IMG/VR virus record: IMGVR_UViG_3300009622_000013
Reading direction: 5' to 3' (one strand)
Length of the DNA stretch: 6,817 nucleotides
DNA from: a virus
Lineage: Duplodnaviria > Heunggongvirae > Uroviricota > Caudoviricetes
Shown: positions 1-6,817 of the stretch, piece after piece
Layout: every line of letters begins with the position of its first letter
Numbering within the stretch: the stretch's first letter is position 1
Translations under genes and position numbers: made by a program
The notes under the pieces: generated by a model
Database searches by the model: none
What the model saw: only the letters and a program-made list of their open reading frames with translations
What the model was told of the DNA's origin: nothing

Positions 1-197
1 TATTTGTAGTATCTCTTTTTGGAATATCTCAATTTTATGTGTCATTTTTCGGGGAAGGATATAGAGATTTAAGCAAGCATTTATTTGGAATGTATTTTTC
101 GTTCGACCTTTGCTTATACATAACAGTCGTTTTTTTAATTTATAAAATAATTCAAAGAAATCAAGACAATAGCGATGTAAAGCACTAAGTTTAAATT

Positions 198-217
198 GCG
201 CGCCAATCATGGCGCGC
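198..217 (-). terminator. Candidate stem-loop just 3' of the minus-strand ORF stop; weak intrinsic terminator
   Basis: Perfect 8-bp GC-rich stem GCGCGCCA (198-205) / TGGCGCGC (210-217) with loop ATCA. On the minus strand it is followed by AATTTAAACTT, only a moderate U-tract. It lies 5 nt beyond the stop at 223-225. Confidence 0.3.
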
Positions 218-222
218 ACAAG

Positions 223-504
223 CTATAATACCAACCTAATTTCTCCTCCTCTTAGAGTGACTATATCTCCTGATAGAATTGCGGTATTGACTATCAAATG
301 CCCTGATTCGTTGTTTATTGTAATATCTCCTCTATCTGCAGACGATAACTTAAATGCATCATTGCCCACAACAAACCCCCTCCAGAACCAAGTGCTGATA
401 TTATCATCAACAGTGATAGATACATATACTAACTGATTATCGTTATAAGTGATTCCTGTCTTATACTTAACATAAGGACTTCCACTTTGATTCTCGATAG
501 ACAC
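223..504 (-). CDS. C-terminal fragment of an unassigned protein, possibly tail-fibre-like; no convincing start, likely a remnant
   Basis: The 93-aa minus-strand ORF reads like a real beta-rich protein (..GITYNDNQLVYVSITVDDN..GDITINNESGHLIVNTAILSGDIVTLRGGEI), whereas the overlapping plus-strand ORF 209..436 is low-complexity. It begins with a non-ATG codon at the junction with the tfaS fragment and is followed by the hairpin at 198-217. Confidence 0.3.
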   Translation of the reverse strand: MSIENQSGSPYVKYKTGITYNDNQLVYVSITVDDNISTWFWRGFVVGNDAFKLSSADRGDITINNESGHLIVNTAILSGDIVTLRGGEIRLVL

Positions 505-528
505 ATAACATCCAGGGGTTATGTTTGT

Positions 529-831
529 ATGCGTCCCGCGACTATCGCCCCATTAACGCCATACGATAAATGGGATGGTGAGAAATGGGTGACGGATACC
601 GAGGCACAGCATAGCGTCGCAGTAGATGCAGCAGAAGCACAGCGCCAGTCGCTGATTGATACTGCAATGGCTTCCATTAGTCTGATTCAACTGAAATTAC
701 AGGCTGGGCGGAAGCTGATGCAGGCAGAGACCTCCCGACTTAACACTGTGCTGGATTACATTGACGCGGTGACGGCAACAGATACCAGCACCGCGCCGGA
801 TGTCATCTGGCCTGAACTGCCGGAGGAGTAG
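529..831 (+). pseudogene. tfaS: Tail fibre assembly protein, N-terminally truncated fragment
   Basis: The C-terminal portion (..EAQHSVAVDAAEAQRQSLIDTAMASISLIQ..LDYIDAVTATDTSTAPDVIWPELPEE) matches the conserved C-terminal domain pattern of phage Tfa proteins, and is paralogous to the C-terminus of the convergent yfdK product. First ATG is at 529; the track ORF from 487 starts at TTG. The ~80 N-terminal residues of a full Tfa are missing. Confidence 0.6.
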
Positions 832-1243
832 GCCATTCAATATCTGGCGCACTGGAAGTATCGACCAGCTCCAGTGCGTCCAGATAATCCAGCCACAAAT
901 TATATTGCGCCAGTTCCTCACCTTTCAGACGACCAATAGCCGCTTTACCAGCCCATTGTTTACTGTTCATATAATCGTTGGCCTGATTAATCAATTGCTG
1001 CTTTTTCAGTTCGGCTGCAGCAATCTGTTCCTCATGTGTTGGTGGTGGAATTTCAGACCATGCAGGAAAACCATTTTCTCCAGCGATACGGATTTTTCCT
1101 TTCGGCGGTAATCCGGAAAACTCAATATACACTTGCTCATCAACTTCAACAGCATCATCTGGCCATGAGCCAGCTTGCGTGTAATCCTCTTTCATCTCCA
1201 AGGGATAGAAAGAGTTTGTAGTCGCGGAATATATGTAATTCAT
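803..1243 (-). CDS. yfdK: Phage tail fibre assembly protein (Tfa family), 146 aa
   Basis: ATG at 1241-1243 is preceded by GGAGTG on the minus strand. The protein ends ..LWLDYLDALELVDTSSAPDIEWPTPPAVQAR, the Tfa C-terminal signature. It sits immediately downstream of the tail-fibre fragment, the usual stf-tfa order. Length and sequence agree with my recollection of K-12 YfdK. Confidence 0.8.
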   Translation of the reverse strand: MNYIYSATTNSFYPLEMKEDYTQAGSWPDDAVEVDEQVYIEFSGLPPKGKIRIAGENGFPAWSEIPPPTHEEQIAAAELKKQQLINQANDYMNSKQWAGKAAIGRLKGEELAQYNLWLDYLDALELVDTSSAPDIEWPTPPAVQAR

Positions 1244-1269
1244 TTTTCACTCCATAAAGTTAAAAGAAA

Positions 1270-1992
1270 TTAACACCCTAATGCGAAAAATGAAGCACCG
1301 ATACCGGGTACGCCTGCTCTGGAAATAAATTTCACCGGGTCCTGGTTATAACCGGCACAAGCTATATAGCCAACATTTGCACTGCCGGGAGTGTAATCCT
1401 GAGTCGCAAATACCCGCAGACATCTATTCGGAAATGCAATCGGAAAATAGGTTACTGTGTCCTGAGACGTCAGCGGAACATCAATTGGCCCCCATTGAAT
1501 AATTAAACCGGATGGCAATTTTTGATATCCAGGAACTGAAGCAGAAAGCATAAAACTACCCATATCAGGTATCTGATTCGCCCCTGTCCCTACATTTCTT
1601 TTAGCCGCTTCTCCCAAACCAAGGTTTTCGAGAGCCTTTTGCACCGTGCCGTCCAATTTGATATCGCCAAACGGATTCTTGCGGCTTAACAGCAGCGCAC
1701 GAAGCGCGGTAAGCAGCTGGTCATGCCGCCCCTTCTCCAGGCTGGCACCGGAGGCCTCCACAACGCTGCAAAGCTCCTCCTGCAACATGTCAAAGTAGTC
1801 ATCATCCAGATCGGTGGCAGGCGTGCCGGTCTGGGGGTTACCACGGGTACGGGGGATTACCAAAGGCAGCACCTTTAAGCTCCGCAAGACGTTCTGACCA
1901 GTCATGCGCCAGCGCGTTGTCTTCCGCAGTGTAATACGCGGCACATTTGGCGTTATCACCATCAGTAAACAGATCCAGAACAAACGGGCCAA
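1270..1992 (-). pseudogene. yfdL: Tail fibre protein C-terminal fragment; the real coding part is probably about 1270-1840, with the upstream ORF portion overlapping yfdM out of frame
   Basis: The 240-aa ORF has a C-terminal ~190 aa that is tail-fibre-like (..[64 protein letters not shown]..). Its N-terminal ~50 codons lie over the yfdM 3' end in another frame and look non-native. It is followed 27 nt later by the tfa gene yfdK. Confidence 0.55.
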
Positions 1993-2113
1993 ACAGGGTG
2001 TTAATTCCCCAGAAAATGTTGTCCGGCGTGCGCCACTGATCGCCCACTTCCTTCAGTTCATGGGCTGGTTTGTTCCGCAGCTCCACCAGCGCCTGGCAAT
2101 ATTTATTACTCAT
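1838..2113 (-). CDS. yfdM: Truncated phage Dam-family DNA N6-adenine methyltransferase, N-terminal fragment ending just after the NPPY motif
   Basis: The product [91 protein letters not shown] carries the W-R-T-P .. NPPY pattern of phage Dam methylases but stops 2 residues after NPPY. The ATG at 2111-2113 overlaps the yfdN stop (TAATG). The track ORF starts 11 codons upstream at a non-ATG codon. Confidence 0.6.
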
Positions 2114-2607
2114 TAAGCCCCCACGTAATTCCCTGAGAGATACCACTCTTCACCTGATGCAGCCCGCTTACTGCTTTTCCGTAAACACCGTTCACGACGC
2201 GCCAGAAAATTGTTTCGTTCTGGCTGGGAGTGGCTTTCACGGAATGCCGCCATCCACACCGTTGCAGCACGACGGTATAAGCCCCTGGACTCCAGTTCTT
2301 CCGCCTGGCGGGTCAGGCACAAAATCACCCGCGGGTCGTTAGTGCCGACATAGAAATTGCGCACAGGTCTGGTTTCACGAACTGGTTGTGGTTCCGGATC
2401 CTGCGCTCTCTCAGTCAGGCGCGGGAAATGTCTGTGTGTATCTCCTTCACAACGGTGAGCCACACGCCCACTCTGACGTAACTTGCTTGCTGACTGCAGA
2501 ACGCGCTGCCGTGAGTAACCTGCAAAAGCATCCGCAATGTCTCCGGAAGTACAGCCCGGATGGGCTTCAATGAATTTCTGAACGTCATTCAAAAGACTCA
2601 TGCTCAC
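2113..2607 (-). CDS. yfdN: Prophage regulatory protein, PerC-like C-terminal region (recollection)
   Basis: A 164-aa ORF starting at GTG 2605-2607, which overlaps the yfdO stop as GTGA; an in-frame ATG lies 2 codons downstream. The C-terminal region (LCLTRQAEELESRGLYRRAATVWMAAFRESHSQPERNNFLARRERCLRKSS) resembles PerC-type activators. It is arranged like an operon with yfdO and yfdM. Confidence 0.7.
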   Translation of the reverse strand: MSMSLLNDVQKFIEAHPGCTSGDIADAFAGYSRQRVLQSASKLRQSGRVAHRCEGDTHRHFPRLTERAQDPEPQPVRETRPVRNFYVGTNDPRVILCLTRQAEELESRGLYRRAATVWMAAFRESHSQPERNNFLARRERCLRKSSKRAASGEEWYLSGNYVGA

Positions 2608-2972
2608 CCCCTGAATCCTGCCGGGATCTGGCTGTAGTCCACATTGTCGTAACTGGCTTTGAAGTACGGGTCTTCGCGTTTTTCTGTGTACGTGCTGACG
2701 GACGGCGATAAGCGCAGGGAAAGCTCATCCCATTTTTCCCGCAGCTTCGACGGGCTGAGCACGTTACGGCACCAGAACGGATCGCGGCTGACGCGGCTGT
2801 ACATCTCGCAGATTTGTTTGTGAGTACGACCATCCTGCACACACATCAGGCGAATTTCGTTTGCCCAGGCTGTCCAGTTCGGTTCTTTGGGACGAACCAC
2901 CTCGCCGTCACATTCGGCGGCCTGCTCGTACAGGGCGATGATTTTTTTCCAGAGCCACTGTGCGCAGGTCAA
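2604..2972 (-). CDS. yfdO: Phage replication protein O-like remnant, 122 aa (defective replication initiator)
   Basis: The 122-aa ORF MTCAQWLWKKIIALYEQAAECDGEVVRPKEPNWTAWANEIRLMCVQDGRTHKQICEMY.. matches my recollection of K-12 YfdO, annotated as a defective O-like protein. The iteron array lies directly upstream. Confidence 0.65.
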   Translation of the reverse strand: MTCAQWLWKKIIALYEQAAECDGEVVRPKEPNWTAWANEIRLMCVQDGRTHKQICEMYSRVSRDPFWCRNVLSPSKLREKWDELSLRLSPSVSTYTEKREDPYFKASYDNVDYSQIPAGFRG

Positions 2973-3329
2973 ATCATCCTGCGTTCCCCACTGGCGCTTT
3001 TTAGGGCTGAATACAACCGCATCAGGATGGCGAGTTAAAAAATCCTGTTCATCCGTCTGCGTGTCCGGTTGCGAAGCGTCCGGACGAGAAGGTTTTTTAT
3101 CTGACGGATCATGTTTTGATTTTACTGACGGATCCCCGCCAGATTCTGACGGGTGAAAACCCGATTTTTTGCCAGATTTCGACGCATCAAATTTTGACGG
3201 GTCAGATTTTGATGCGTCAGATTTTGACGGGTCAGAGTCTGACAGTTGAGAAAATGCCGCTGCCTGAAGCTTCGCAACGTTAAGCTGATAAACATTCGAC
3301 GCATTGCGGTTATGATGAGGAGCAGCAAA
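2973..3329. promoter_or_regulatory. Divergent intergenic control region between yfdO (minus) and yfdP (plus); contains the iteron array and presumably divergent promoters
   Basis: A 357-bp non-coding gap between divergently oriented genes. GAGGAG sits 8 nt before the yfdP ATG at 3330. Exact -35/-10 elements could not be assigned with confidence by eye. Confidence 0.4.
3171..3245. repeat. Five tandem 15-bp iterons (consensus GTCAGATTTTGAYGS) with degenerate copies upstream from about 3100; putative ori or operator repeats
   Basis: Units read directly in register: 3171 GCCAGATTTCGACGC, 3186 ATCAAATTTTGACGG, 3201 GTCAGATTTTGATGC, 3216 GTCAGATTTTGACGG, 3231 GTCAGAGTCTGACAG. The last has internal dyad symmetry (GTCAGA-G-TCTGAC). 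Further TGACGG-containing copies occur at 3102, 3126 and 3147. Confidence 0.6.
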
Positions 3330-3692
3330 ATGGCTAGCGAACGCAGTACTGATGTGCAGGCATTTATCGGGGAGCTGGACGGCGGCGTATTTGAAACCAA
3401 AATCGGCGCAGTTCTCAGTGAAGTCGCTTCCGGTGTGATGAACACGAAAACCAAAGGTAAGGTCTCACTCAACCTGGAAATCGAACCATTTGATGAGAAC
3501 CGTCTGAAAATCAAACACAAACTCTCATATGTTCGCCCGACTAACCGTGGGAAAATTTCCGAAGAAGACACCACCGAAACGCCGATGTATGTCAATCGCG
3601 GTGGTCGCCTGACTATTCTGCAGGAAGACCAGGGACAATTACTGACTCTTGCCGGTGAGCCTGACGGAAAACTCCGCGCAGCAGGTCATTAA
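3330..3692 (+). CDS. yfdP: Prophage protein of unknown function, 120 aa
   Basis: ATG at 3330 is preceded by GAGGAG. The product MASERSTDVQAFIGELDGGVFETKIGAVLSEV.. is protein-like. The track ORF from 3246 adds 28 low-complexity residues upstream with no ribosome binding site. Sequence matches my recollection of K-12 YfdP. Confidence 0.7.
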   Translation: MASERSTDVQAFIGELDGGVFETKIGAVLSEVASGVMNTKTKGKVSLNLEIEPFDENRLKIKHKLSYVRPTNRGKISEEDTTETPMYVNRGGRLTILQEDQGQLLTLAGEPDGKLRAAGH

Positions 3693-3757
3693 TATCATTC
3701 TTAATTAACTAATTATTTATCTCATCACTGAATATCTTAATATAGTGAGGACTTATT

Positions 3758-4582
3758 ATGTCTCAGAACTTAGACGCAACCGCAATTAATCAAATCCATG
3801 CCCTTATTTCTGCTCAGGGTGTTAATGAAATTATCAGTAAGATTGGTGCCGATGCTGTGGCATTGCCTGAGAATTTCCGCATTCATGATCTGGAAAAATT
3901 TAATTTAAATCGCTTCCGTTTCCGTGGTGCGCTTTCCACTGCCAGCATCGATGACTTTACCCGTTATTCTAAAGATCTTGCAGATGAAGGCACCCGCTGC
4001 TTTATCGATGCTGATAATATGCGTGCCGTCAGTGTGCTTAACCTGGGTACTATTGATGAACCAGGTCACGCAGATAACACCGCCACTCTCAAACTGAAAA
4101 AGACAGCACCGTTCTCTGCCCTGTTGTCTGTTAACGGCGAGCGTAACTCCCAGAAATCACTGGCAGAATGGATTGAAGACTGGGCCGACTACCTTGTGGG
4201 CTTTGATGCTAATGGTGACGCCATTCAGGCAACAAAAGCGGCTGCGGCAATCCGTAAAATCACGATTGAAGCAAACCAGACCGCTGATTTTGAAGATAAT
4301 GACTTCAGCGGCAAACGCTCCCTGATGGAATCTGTCGAAGCGAAGACCAAAGACATTATGCCAGTGGCATTTGAATTTAAATGCGTTCCGTTTGAAGGTC
4401 TGAAAGAACGTCCGTTTAAATTACGCCTCAGCATTATCACTGGCGATCGTCCTGTACTGGTTCTGCGCATTATTCAGCTGGAAGCGGTGCAGGAAGATAT
4501 GGCTAACGAATTTCGTGATCTGCTTGTTGAGAAATTCAAAGACAGCAAAGTAGAAACCTTTATTGGTACTTTCACCGCCTGA
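3758..4582 (+). CDS. yfdQ: Prophage protein YfdQ, 274 aa, uncharacterised (DUF-type)
   Basis: A 274-aa ORF with ATG at 3758 preceded by GTGAGGA. The product [53 protein letters not shown].. is recognised from memory as K-12 YfdQ. It is followed by a strong hairpin. Confidence 0.85.
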
Positions 4583-4594
4583 TTTCATTACTGC

Positions 4595-4620
4595 AAATGC
4601 CCCTGCGGGGGCATTTATGG
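4595..4620 (+). terminator. Candidate intrinsic terminator or attenuator downstream of yfdQ
   Basis: Perfect 9-bp stem AAATGCCCC (4595-4603) / GGGGCATTT (4608-4616) with loop TGCG, followed by ATGG. The 3' arm ends in UUU. It may act in both directions. Confidence 0.45.
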
Positions 4621-4709
4621 AAACGTAATTAACTCAATAATCACCGGATGGTGAGGGCTTCCTTTTACCCAAACTCAGCGCGGTGCAGCGCATATACGTG
4701 GAGAACAAA

Positions 4710-5246
4710 ATGTCATTTATTAAAACTTTTTCCGGGAAGCATTTTTATTATGACAAGATAAATAAAGACGACATCGTGATTAACGATATCGCGGTTTCCC
4801 TTTCAAATATCTGCCGCTTTGCCGGTCATCTTTCTCACTTCTACAGTGTCGCCCAACATGCGGTGCTTTGCAGCCAGCTGGTGCCGCAGGAATTTGCTTT
4901 TGAAGCATTAATGCATGATGCAACAGAAGCGTATTGCCAGGACATCCCCGCACCACTGAAACGCCTTCTTCCTGACTATAAACGGATGGAAGAAAAAATA
5001 GATGCAGTAATCCGTGAGAAATACGGGTTACCTCCTGTTATGAGCACGCCAGTGAAATATGCCGATCTCATTATGCTGGCAACCGAACGCCGTGATCTCG
5101 GGCTTGATGATGGCTCTTTCTGGCCTGTACTGGAAGGCATCCCGGCAACAGAGATGTTCAACGTGATTCCACTGGCACCGGGTCATGCCTACGGGATGTT
5201 TATGGAACGTTTTAACGATTTATCGGAGTTACGCAAATGCGCATGA
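4710..5246 (+). CDS. yfdR: HD-domain phosphohydrolase (5'-deoxynucleotidase family), 178 aa
   Basis: ATG at 4710 (MSFIKTF..) is preceded by GGAGA; the track ORF from 4683 starts at a non-ATG codon without a ribosome binding site. The HD-domain signature is present: H40, H43, then H69-D70 (codons 4914-4919, LMHDATEAY). The stop overlaps the yfdS start region. Confidence 0.8.
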   Translation: MSFIKTFSGKHFYYDKINKDDIVINDIAVSLSNICRFAGHLSHFYSVAQHAVLCSQLVPQEFAFEALMHDATEAYCQDIPAPLKRLLPDYKRMEEKIDAVIREKYGLPPVMSTPVKYADLIMLATERRDLGLDDGSFWPVLEGIPATEMFNVIPLAPGHAYGMFMERFNDLSELRKCA

Positions 5247-5599
5247 ATGTTTTCGAAATGGAAGGGTTTCTTCGCGGGAAATGTGTACCGCGAGATCTGA
5301 AAGTGAACGAAACAAATGCTGAGTACCTGGTACGTAAATTCGACGCGCTTGAAGCTAAATGTGCGGCACTGGAAAACAAAATAATACCAGTGTCAGCTGA
5401 ACTGCCACCAGCAAATGAAAGTGTTCTGTTATTTGATGCTAACGGAGAAGGCTGGCTGATTGGCTGGCGTTCTCTCTGGTACACCTGGGGACAAAAAGAA
5501 ACCGGAGAATGGCAGTGGACATTTCAGGTTGGGGACCTTGAAAACGTCAATATCACTCACTGGGCAGTAATGCCAAAAGCACCGGAGGCTGGAGCATAA
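5237..5599 (+). CDS. yfdS: Prophage protein of unknown function, 120 aa
   Basis: ATG at 5237 is preceded by GGAG and overlaps the yfdR 3' end (ATGCGCATGA); its TAA stop overlaps the yfdT ATG (TAATG at 5597-5601). Sequence MRMNVFEMEGFLRGKCVPRDLK.. matches my recollection of K-12 YfdS. Confidence 0.75.
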   Translation: MRMNVFEMEGFLRGKCVPRDLKVNETNAEYLVRKFDALEAKCAALENKIIPVSAELPPANESVLLFDANGEGWLIGWRSLWYTWGQKETGEWQWTFQVGDLENVNITHWAVMPKAPEAGA

Positions 5600-5904
5600 T
5601 GACCACATTTACCAATAAAGAACTGATTAAAGAAATCAAAGAACGAATCAGCAGCCTAGAGGTTCGAGACGATATTGAGCGCCGTGCTTATGAAATCGCA
5701 CTCGTATCTCTGGAAGTAGAGCCAGATGAACGCGAAGCCTATGAATTATTCATGGAAAAGCGTTTCGGTGACTTAGTAGATCGTCGGAGAGCAAAAAACG
5801 GCGATAACGAATACATGGCATGGGATATGACTCTCGGTTGGATCATCTGGCAGCAACGAGCTGGTATCCATTTTTCAACAATGTCACAACAAGAGGTGAA
5901 ATAA
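5599..5904 (+). CDS. yfdT: Prophage protein of unknown function, 101 aa
   Basis: ATG at 5599 is translationally coupled to yfdS. The product MTTFTNKELIKEIKERISSLEVRDDIERRAYEIALVSLEVEPDEREAYELFMEKRF.. is charged and helical. It is the last gene of the yfdPQRST block. Confidence 0.75.
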   Translation: MTTFTNKELIKEIKERISSLEVRDDIERRAYEIALVSLEVEPDEREAYELFMEKRFGDLVDRRRAKNGDNEYMAWDMTLGWIIWQQRAGIHFSTMSQQEVK

Positions 5905-5916
5905 TAGAGCCATACA

Positions 5917-5945
5917 GCCTCACACTCGATGAGGCCTGTCAGTTT
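5917..5945 (+). terminator. Weak candidate terminator hairpin downstream of yfdT
   Basis: Stem GCCTCA (5917-5922) / TGAGGC (5930-5935) with loop CACTCGA, followed by CTGTCAGTTTCTT. Short stem and interrupted U-tract. Confidence 0.25.
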
Positions 5946-6000
5946 CTTAAAATATCCTGATCTACCATCGCCGTCATAGAGCGTATTTTTATTACCTGAT

Positions 6001-6016
6001 TTGCAGGTTCGATTCC
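6001..6016 (+). other. Orphan tRNA T-arm-like fragment (TTGCAGGTTCGATTCC), not part of an intact tRNA
   Basis: Contains the canonical tRNA T-loop motif GGTTCGATTCC preceded by GCAGG. The complementary 3' T-stem strand and the acceptor stem are absent, and no cloverleaf can be drawn. By recollection it matches the T-arm of tRNA-Arg argW. Confidence 0.45.
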
Positions 6017-6035
6017 CTATTCGGAGATAGCACTC

Positions 6036-6236
6036 ATGCAACACGAACTACAGCCTGATTCACTGGTTGATTTGAAATTCATCATGGCTGATACTGGCTT
6101 TGGTAAAACCTTCATCTATGACCGGATTAAGTCAGGCGACCTGCCAAAAGCCAAAGTTATCCACGGGCGAGCAAGATGGTTATATCGTGACCATTGTGAA
6201 TTCAAAAATAAGCTCTTAAGCCGCGCCAATGGGTAA
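6036..6236 (+). CDS. torI: Excisionase-like recombination directionality factor / Tor response-regulator inhibitor, 66 aa
   Basis: ATG at 6036 is preceded by GGAG. The product MQHELQPDSLVDLKFIMADTGFGKTFIYDRIKSGDLPKAKVIHGRARWLYRDHCEFKNKLLSRANG is recognised from memory as TorI (AlpA/Xis-like winged helix). It lies next to the att core, as expected for a recombination directionality factor. Confidence 0.85.
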   Translation: MQHELQPDSLVDLKFIMADTGFGKTFIYDRIKSGDLPKAKVIHGRARWLYRDHCEFKNKLLSRANG

Positions 6237-6309
6237 AATAGCGGGTAAAATATTTCTCACATCTAAAAAACACCATTCCAATCAATCCCCTGCTGCTTCA
6301 AGTAGATGT

Positions 6310-6324
6310 CTGCAGGGGACACCA
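6310..6324 (+). other. Putative attR core: 15-nt copy of a tRNA 3' end (CTGCAGGGGACACCA) marking the prophage/host boundary
   Basis: The sequence ends in the acceptor-stem/ACCA-type terminus of a tRNA and by recollection equals the 3' end of argW tRNA-Arg. No upstream tRNA body is present, so it is a partial duplicate as expected at the att site distal to the integrase. It is flanked by torI (prophage) and dsdC (host). Confidence 0.6.
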
Positions 6325-6419
6325 TCCTTGTGTTTATCCCTAAAACCACATAAAAACCGTAAATTAAATTCGAACTAGCAGGCCGAATAAGGCACACCAG
6401 GAACTCGTGGTTTTATTCA

Positions 6420-6755
6420 TTATGAAGTGGTTTTTACCTGTTCTCTTAGCCAGATAATAAACGCTTCAATTTTTGGCCACTGCCTGCCCGGTAATGTGGT
6501 GATGTAATAATGCTGATGGCATTTCACCGTCATATCGCCAAACGGCGCGACGAGCTCACCACTGGCAAGCCTTTTTTGTACCAGGCGTTTTCTTCCCATC
6601 GCCACCCCAATATGATTCATCGCGGCAATAACAGCTAAATCAGAACGATCAAAGCCAATTCCAGAAGATGTCGGCAAATTAACCGCATAATGTTGCGCCC
6701 AACTATGCCATTCATCCGTACCGGAGTCGTTGCTCCATGCCTGTCTGTCATGGAG
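6420..6755 (-). CDS. dsdC: LysR-family transcriptional regulator, C-terminal part only (D-serine deaminase activator); upstream part replaced by a fold-back palindrome
   Basis: The minus-strand ORF ends ..HDRQAWSNDSGTDEWHSWAQHYAVNLPTSSGIGFDRSDLAVIAAMNHIGVAMGRKRLVQKRLASGELVAPFGDMTVKCHQHYYITTLPGRQWPKIEAFIIWLREQVKTTS, a LysR effector-domain C-terminus recognised as DsdC. The first 17 residues of the track ORF (MPFIRTGVVAPCLSVME) are encoded by the reverse-complement arm of the palindrome and are not native. Confidence 0.7.
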   Translation of the reverse strand, partial: LHDRQAWSNDSGTDEWHSWAQHYAVNLPTSSGIGFDRSDLAVIAAMNHIGVAMGRKRLVQKRLASGELVAPFGDMTVKCHQHYYITTLPGRQWPKIEAFIIWLREQVKTTS

Positions 6756-6817
6756 CTCCATGACAGACAGGCATGGAGCAACGACTCCGGTACGGATGAA
6801 TGGCATAGTTGGGCGCA
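6694..6817. repeat. Perfect 124-bp palindrome (62-bp arms, no spacer, centre between 6755 and 6756) running to the window end
   Basis: Bases 6756-6817 are the exact reverse complement of 6694-6755, checked block by block. The centre is GGAGCTCC. Confidence 0.95.

Follow-up and report, generated by a model that had tools for sequence, protein, structure and literature searches.

How five whole open reading frames (ORFs) come to stand in an otherwise decayed prophage is the question raised by the yfdP-yfdQ-yfdR-yfdS-yfdT block and the adjoining torI gene, which lie on a 6,817-nucleotide stretch of DNA recorded in IMG/VR as a virus of the Caudoviricetes (IMGVR_UViG_3300009622_000013); this whole stretch is referred to below as the window. 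An earlier note on this DNA had taken the preservation of the block as a sign of selection on a host-interaction function. Bases 1-6756 of the window are 100% identical to Escherichia coli K-12 and its laboratory derivatives, and the window is the defective prophage CPS-53, alias KplE1, of E. coli K-12. The RefSeq gene order of the matching region is argW, intS, yfdG, yfdH, yfdI, tail-fibre remnants, yfdK, yfdL, yfdM (pseudogene) and yfdN, continued by an O-like helix-turn-helix pseudogene, yfdP, yfdQ, yfdR, a 'phage protein' (yfdS), yfdT, torI and dsdC. With the gene names of RefSeq, and as the locus of the report on YfdR and DnaA that the earlier note mentioned (Noguchi & Katayama 2016, PMC4776307), the block with torI is an already described locus and not a new one, as had been supposed. 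We consider it likely that positions 3311-5957 are the early-left accessory cassette of an SfV-like lambdoid temperate phage, cut out of its context by deletions, composed of three evolutionary units and able in part to hold back chromosomal replication.

Probable phage origin of the cassette and its two junctions

Searching phage genomes, homology to the block was found to start exactly at 3311 and to end at 5957-5966, with 96-98% identity, in phages SfV, SfIV, Kati, PhiR29/49, cdtI, 2H10 and Shiga toxin (Stx) phages of the Stx2c type. Shigella phage SfV has the order cI, orf33, terminator, orf32 (YfdP), orf31 (YfdQ), orf30 (YfdR), orf29 (YfdS), orf28 (YfdT), xis, int, and with this early-left cassette orf32-orf28, present also in SfIV, Kati, PhiR29, cdtI and Stx2c phages, K-12 shares the five ORFs, their lengths, their overlaps and their order. 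The differences lie on both sides of it: in the phages, cI (with orf33) and 400-700 bp of upstream DNA precede the cassette and an intact xis-int follows, whereas K-12 has lost the upstream region by deletion and has torI-attR in place of xis-int. The undeleted layout is retained in the complete prophage region of strain EC22, which has leftward Q, RusA, a LexA-like gene, yfdN, an O-like gene (313 aa), DUF4222, ymfL and cro, and rightward the repressor, a spacer of ~700 bp, yfdP-T, xis and int.

The left junction follows an O-like replication gene remnant (Table 1), which is an open frame of 235 codons free of internal stops, is annotated in RefSeq as a pseudogene 'missing N-terminus' and has the same orientation as its full-length homologue in EC22. 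Compared with that layout, the K-12 lineage appears to have lost ~2.9 kb, comprising the start of the O-like gene, cro, the cI/immunity region and the DNA upstream of yfdP save for its last 19 bp, and the native promoter of the cassette presumably lay in the lost DNA. At the right junction, a three-way comparison with SfV and Kati showed that 17 codons of an SfV-type excisionase gene are kept, with the ATG start changed to ATA at 5905-5907, and that homology stops at ~5957, where the torI-attR end of an argW-type IntS/TorI module appears to have replaced the SfV-type xis-int. The five ORFs would thus be whole because the decay consisted of a few recent deletions and not of point mutation.

The earlier note had let the block end with torI, which on this comparison belongs elsewhere. 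TorI, which serves KplE1 as recombination directionality factor (excisionase) and also inhibits TorR (PMC2951348, PMC3509656), matches the phrog_66 excisionase family (2.7e-8) and is annotated by RefSeq at this position, beside attR; torI is found without yfdP-T in many genomes, and prophage-free genomes match the window from 6310 onward. In torI, attR core and prophage-end position this part of the window is exactly as published for the IntS-TorI module of KplE1, HK620 and Sf6, a unit separate from yfdP-T and joined to it at ~5957 across the dead SfV-type xis stub. TorI also matches the PADLOC model mad1 (E = 7.6e-14), which we read as a shared AlpA/excisionase-type helix-turn-helix fold and not as a defence role.

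Inside the O-like remnant, iteron-like direct repeats were detected that look like a relic of the phage origin. A footprint of SrsR (YgfI) has been reported over four copies of TCAGATTTTGa in the 'yfdO/yfdP spacer', the top peak in genomic SELEX (gSELEX), and yfdPQ mRNA is SrsR-dependent and detectable in growing cells (PMC9181523); the published boxes are these repeats, at 3173-3247 within the remnant. The strongest genomic target of SrsR, a host LysR-type regulator, is this site, which may be a dead phage origin. Downstream of the repeats, a weak sigma-70-like site across the left junction is a candidate fusion promoter for yfdP, proposed from its position and motif matches.

Table 1. Coordinates of features of the window considered in the text.
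Feature	Position	Strand	Description
Iteron-like direct repeats	3125-3247	.	CAGATTTTGAC/TG, 15-bp spacing, 5 copies (repeat search), inside O-like remnant
O-like replication gene remnant (yfdO/oweS)	2604-3311	-	lambdoid helix-turn-helix; N-terminus absent; left flank of deletion junction
Sigma-70-like site, weak	3289-3316	+	TAAACA-16-TATGAT, 9/12 matches, spans junction 3311/3312
yfdP	3330-3692	+	120 aa, YfdP family PF27127, phrog_204
yfdQ	3758-4582	+	274 aa, DUF2303/YfdQ family, PF10065, phrog_210
Hairpin	4595-4616	+	9-bp GC-rich stem AAAUGCCCC-UGCG-GGGGCAUUU, 13 nt past yfdQ stop
yfdR	4710-5246	+	178 aa, HD-superfamily phosphohydrolase annotated as 5'-deoxynucleotidase, phrog_318
yfdS	5237-5599	+	120 aa, N-terminal leader and C-terminal DUF551; start overlaps yfdR stop
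yfdT	5599-5904	+	101 aa, phrog_660 match; start overlaps yfdS stop by 1 nt
SfV-type excisionase remnant	5905-5957	+	within annotated ypdJ ORF 5820-5960; right mosaic junction
torI	6036-6236	+	66 aa, RefSeq torI, phrog_66 excisionase
attR core	6310-6325	.	CTGCAGGGGACACCAT; right prophage end; core per PMC2951348; single occurrence in window

Three apparent units within the cassette

All six ORFs were found where the earlier note had placed them, each with a single terminal stop and with a GGAG/GAGG-type ribosome binding site 5-15 nt upstream, and the two overlap sequences it had given are exact (ATGCGCATGA at 5237-5246, TAATG at 5597-5601). It had claimed translational coupling for the whole block, but overlapping stop and start codons are present only in the pairs yfdR/yfdS (-10 nt) and yfdS/yfdT (-1 nt), whereas the other pairs are gapped (yfdP-yfdQ 65 nt, yfdQ-yfdR 127 nt with a hairpin, yfdT-torI 131 nt); judged by this spacing, the five genes do not appear to be one translationally coupled unit, and the first claim was overstated. 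The hairpin after yfdQ, with an RNA fold of -27.1 kcal/mol (z = -2.5), is a possible terminator or attenuator parting yfdPQ from yfdRST, which fits the treatment of yfdPQ as an operon of its own in PMC9181523. The hairpin also coincides with a mosaic boundary, at which matches in other genomes break (4599/4630).

Such match end-points lie at gene or domain boundaries along the cassette, namely at 4599/4630, 5218-5246, 5343, 5587-5590, 5716-5723 and 5957. Among 80 IMG/VR prophage contigs with near-identical yfdQ, a sample of near-identical E. coli prophage copies only, full-length YfdP and YfdQ were each present in 80, YfdR in 77, YfdS in 45 and YfdT in 26, and TorI was present in two. From its break-points and gene content the cassette thus appears to be three evolutionary units and not one: yfdP-yfdQ, an adjacent pair that seems always to be kept together; yfdR, which would usually follow this pair in enteric phages; and yfdS and yfdT, apparently variable mosaic genes of the Ea22-like kind, built as 'N-terminal module + DUF551'.

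In the first unit, YfdQ is a member of the DUF2303 family (PF10065, 311.9 bits with the cut-off at 26.6, covering positions 2-269 of a profile of 269; phrog_210, 5e-120), and the 98%-identical cluster P0121 of YfdP and all 120 of its listed relatives carry PF27127, with a usual length of 120-123 aa. A longer YfdP (226 aa in the annotation of Kati) was rejected, the upstream frame having stops in SfV, not being shared by K-12 and exceeding the length of the family. A profile search found a YfdP homologue directly upstream of YfdQ in 12 of the 12 loci fetched, from six host genera, and phage CP2 has a YfdP homologue encoded just before its YfdQ homologue (hhalign probability 99.2%, E = 1e-19). 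The neighbourhoods are P-Q-DUF1351-Erf-exonuclease-endonuclease-SSB in Xanthomonas phage CP2, exonucleases followed by P-Q, one gene and SSB in Vibrio phage VvAW1, DnaQ-like-P-Q-SSB in Vibrio phage 24E35.2, Gam-RecT-exonuclease-SSB-P-Q in Stx phage PA2, repressor-P-Q-R ... DnaQ-like exonuclease-xis-int in LLS, and P-Q, two genes and AlpA (an excisionase-type regulator) in Pseudomonas phage PG1, where the integrase is adjacent on the opposite strand. In these loci, yfdP-yfdQ is a conserved adjacent pair of Xanthomonas, Vibrio, Pseudomonas and Stx phages, usually associated in position with genes for SSB, exonucleases or annealing proteins. A 2025 survey lists yfdP, yfdQ and the HD gene as common in lambdoid early-left operons and gives the function of yfdP and yfdQ as unknown (PMC12315714).

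A homologue of YfdQ has been solved as PDB 9o7m 'YfdQ Protein' (274 aa, 36 chains; E = 2e-44), whose sequence is 98.8% identical to the homologue of Xanthomonas phage MET23-P3 (CP2-like); the 36 chains imply that either the assembly is large or the asymmetric unit is crowded. The example chain of the entry is C, so that a different molecule may make up chains A and B. A literature search for PDB 9o7m and for a YfdQ or DUF2303 structure found no paper in the library used. AlphaFold models of YfdQ and YfdP (mean predicted local distance difference test scores 77.6 and 69.9) gave no full-length match to a known fold; that of YfdP consists of a helix and three long strands and had no informative PDB match. 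Tentatively, YfdP and YfdQ may form a two-protein unit of phage DNA metabolism, which could be a new accessory of recombination or of replication takeover in which YfdQ acts as large homo-oligomers.

The second unit, YfdR, has the H69-D70 motif pointed out in the earlier note, with H50 and D119 as the other metal ligands, and these residues align with conserved residues of the HD protein Atu1052 (PDB 2gz4, E = 1.3e-13). It matches phrog_318, 'deoxyribonucleoside 5' monophosphate phosphatase', at 1.5e-109, and stays below curated cut-offs for Pfam YfbR-like (24.3 against 25.9 bits), HD_3 (17 against 22.5) and NCBIfam PRK03826 (19.9 against 122). Since the scores fall under the YfbR cut-offs and the match to phrog_318 is strong, YfdR is best regarded, on profile comparison, as a distinct phage subfamily of the HD superfamily and not as an equivalog of YfbR. 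With the E. coli HD-domain 5'-deoxynucleotidase YfbR it shares the superfamily and the H...HD(xxE)...D metal site, its annotation is that of a 5'-deoxynucleotidase, and the literature describes the two as structural homologues; in contrast to YfbR, its deoxynucleoside monophosphate phosphatase activity reportedly goes with much lower nucleotide affinities (Zimmerman 2008, as cited in PMC4776307), and DnaA binding belongs to YfdR only.

YfdS, in the third unit, consists of two modules, a widely shared N-terminal leader (~residues 1-47) and DUF551 (residues 50-117), the latter a marginal Pfam match (22.2 bits against a cut-off of 22); matches in PHROG and the representative library split at ~residue 47, and the DUF551 module has also been noted in an Ea22 variant of Stx phages. 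In alignment, YfdT corresponds to the first ~100 residues and the last four (QEVK) of DUF551 proteins of 173-177 aa, the DUF551 between them being absent; it matches positions 3-148 of the 193 of the phrog_660 profile and had no match in a Pfam scan even at E <= 10. This short form is common, with a cluster of ~1,100 sequences, and is not damage specific to K-12, since SfV orf28 has the same 101 aa. A comparison of YfdS and YfdT for a shared domain behind their reported redundancy gave a BLASTP E-value of 0.38, with YfdT lacking DUF551.

Proposed roles: replication hold-back, phage DNA metabolism and host selection

The cluster was obtained as a suppressor of hda-185 in multicopy; YfdR binds domain I of DnaA at Phe46 and is a moderate competitor of DiaA and DnaB, and an excess of YfdQRST in extracts inhibits replication from oriC in vitro (PMC4776307). 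The replication inhibition mentioned in the earlier note is that of the same report, its exact requirement being multicopy yfdQ and yfdR together with either yfdS or yfdT, which inhibits initiation at oriC, whereas yfdP is dispensable.

In the parent phage, the cassette would be expressed early from the repressor-side operon after induction or infection. YfdR on domain I of DnaA, with YfdQ and either YfdS or YfdT, would then hold back initiation at oriC, in line with the binding and the multicopy inhibition shown by others, and the P-Q pair, as well as YfdR by its phosphohydrolase activity, would probably act on DNA and deoxynucleotide metabolism, aiding phage replication and recombination. 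In K-12, the cassette would be a relic with weak transcription from a secondary promoter that depends on SrsR and lies by the old origin iterons, and would leave normal growth with no replication phenotype.

Several points weigh against this account. Deletion of the cluster had no replication phenotype and left initiation unchanged, the oriC effect is known from multicopy plasmids only and its authors allow for an overexpression artefact, and YfdQ, YfdS and YfdT gave no stable pull-down binding to YfdR or DnaA (PMC4776307). Single-gene deletions are sensitive to hydrogen peroxide (H2O2) or methyl methanesulfonate (MMS) (PMC3105296; as cited in PMC4776307), which points to some host activity that the model does not explain. 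The candidate K-12 promoter does not stand out from chance, since a promoter scan of the region gave a site count not above that of shuffled sequence.

An alternative would make the oriC/DnaA effect a by-product of overexpression and have the conserved core serve phage DNA metabolism, with P-Q as an accessory of recombination or single-stranded DNA handling and YfdR trimming deoxynucleotide pools; we regard this as possible, if rather doubtful. It draws on the placing of P-Q beside recombination or single-stranded DNA genes in the unrelated phages CP2, VvAW1, 24E35.2 and PA2, on LLS, which lacks a canonical Rec module and has P-Q-R ... DnaQ-like exonuclease, on the reported MMS sensitivity of the yfdQ deletion, on the 36 chains of the YfdQ-homologue entry, and on the artefact conceded as possible by the authors of PMC4776307. 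Nevertheless, it is an argument from gene neighbourhood alone, and SfV, Kati and PG1 have no recombination gene nearby; YfdQ showed no homology to Erf/RecT and YfdP none to Gam/SSB (hhalign probabilities <= 0.2%, with no structural match either), the AlphaFold models had no convincing match to the fold of a nucleic-acid enzyme, and in PMC12315714 the genes are neither confined to nor universal in phages that lack a Rec module.

Host domestication, in which K-12 would keep yfdP-T intact for the benefit of the host (stress tolerance, or damped initiation under stress) with SrsR recruited as controller, appears unlikely. It would accommodate the lowered H2O2 survival after deletion of yfdS (also of yfdK and yfdO) and the lowered acid and H2O2 survival after deletion of CPS-53 (PMC3105296), the weak MMS and H2O2 sensitivity of a yfdQ deletion (as cited in PMC4776307), the binding of SrsR upstream of yfdP with raised yfdPQ mRNA, and the mainly synonymous nature of the substitutions private to K-12. 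These phenotypes, however, come from uncomplemented single-gene knock-outs that include the opposite-strand genes yfdK and yfdO, which suggests polar or indirect effects, and since the boxes bound by SrsR are origin iterons of the phage itself, this binding may be fortuitous.

The genome comparisons also speak against domestication. Among 5,426 complete genomes, the left junction (3311/3312) is present in 361, the right junction (~5957) in 390 and the full window arrangement in 360, and among the matches listed all of the last are 100% identical K-12 laboratory strains. An arrangement limited to the K-12 lineage and with zero divergence would have no evolutionary depth, and hence no evolutionary time in which selection could be read. 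Nor is the block better kept than its surroundings: the neighbouring remnants on the left have clean deletion ends and are just as free of internal stops and frameshifts, and, of the left-hand genes that the earlier note had called fragments, the O-like gene is truncated, whereas yfdK (146 aa) and yfdN (164 aa, as long as its EC22 counterpart) are full-length. The five ORFs are identical in length to those of SfV, and relative to this phage the block is intact as described; intactness is, however, what recent deletion-driven decay predicts, and the inference from preservation to selection on a host-interaction function does not hold.

The ratio of non-synonymous to synonymous substitution rates (dN/dS) of the cassette is 0.11 against SfV and 0.09 against Kati, and compared with SfV, Kati and EC22 K-12 has 25 private codon changes, of which 7 are non-synonymous and 18 synonymous, a pattern that would be expected of genes evolving in active phages until recently. 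The low dN/dS is accounted for by the same cassette being carried by active phages and by ~1,550 genomes at 96-98% identity (the cassette or parts of it in 3,890 of the 5,426 complete genomes, at least 80% of it in 1,552). As many as 17 of the 25 private changes fall in yfdR, 14 of them synonymous, which suggests that the K-12 allele of yfdR was acquired by recombination from another phage lineage and not mutated in place.

That the block is a prophage-borne anti-phage defence or superinfection exclusion system, acting for instance by nucleotide depletion through YfdR, is highly improbable: prophage accessory genes are often defensive, YfdR is a (deoxy)nucleotide phosphohydrolase and production of YfdQ or YfdM alters plaque production by the resident phage SW1 (preprint), but PADLOC models had no match for YfdP, YfdQ, YfdR, YfdS or YfdT (TorI alone matching the helix-turn-helix-type mad1), the genes lie in an early lytic-side operon, whereas defence morons are typically expressed in the lysogen, they are also carried by the genomes of CP2-like Xanthomonas phages and of Vibrio phages, in which no integrase or repressor was seen annotated, and their native promoter is missing from K-12.

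Standing of the locus and comparison with known systems

As first framed, the finding carries small weight: the locus is annotated, one known activity has been published and the selection argument fails. Its value is that of a worked example of a defective prophage that seems to be selectively preserved after a few recent deletions. The yfdP-yfdQ pair, which more than half of the complete E. coli genomes carry, which also occurs in phages of several further genera and which now has a solved homologue, is a tractable target for the discovery of function and the one lead worth following; if the pair were indeed a unit of DNA metabolism, the need for yfdQ in the DnaA/oriC phenotype would reflect that activity.

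Regarding the rest of the window, the 61 bases that close it (6757-6817) match the reverse complement of 6695-6755 exactly, forming a perfect 62+62 palindrome with arms at 6694-6755 and 6756-6817 inside dsdC, and the K-12 reference diverges from the window after 6756; the palindrome looks like a fold-back artefact of the contig end. A tRNA search of the window found none, and the Rfam matches in the window, which were to microRNA only, were rejected as spurious and caused by this fold-back.

The yfdQ-yfdR-yfdS-yfdT cluster of CPS-53 (Noguchi & Katayama 2016, PMC4776307) is the same locus as that of the window, with no sequence difference; what is added here beyond that work are the deletion and mosaic junctions, the three-unit structure, the domain-deleted yfdT and the restriction of the arrangement to K-12. 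In the account preferred above, that of an early-left cassette of an SfV-like phage, the parallel in position and function would be the exo-xis region of lambda and Stx phages (ea22, orf60a-orf73), which has the same early-left position by xis and likewise consists of small, dispensable, mosaic and very early genes, and the proteins of which are reported to affect the host cell cycle and DNA replication in lambda (PMC8614690). The two differ in that no homology was seen between the lambda region and the cassette apart from DUF551 and the N-terminal leaders, and in that the lambda region has no YfdP, no YfdQ and no HD-domain gene.

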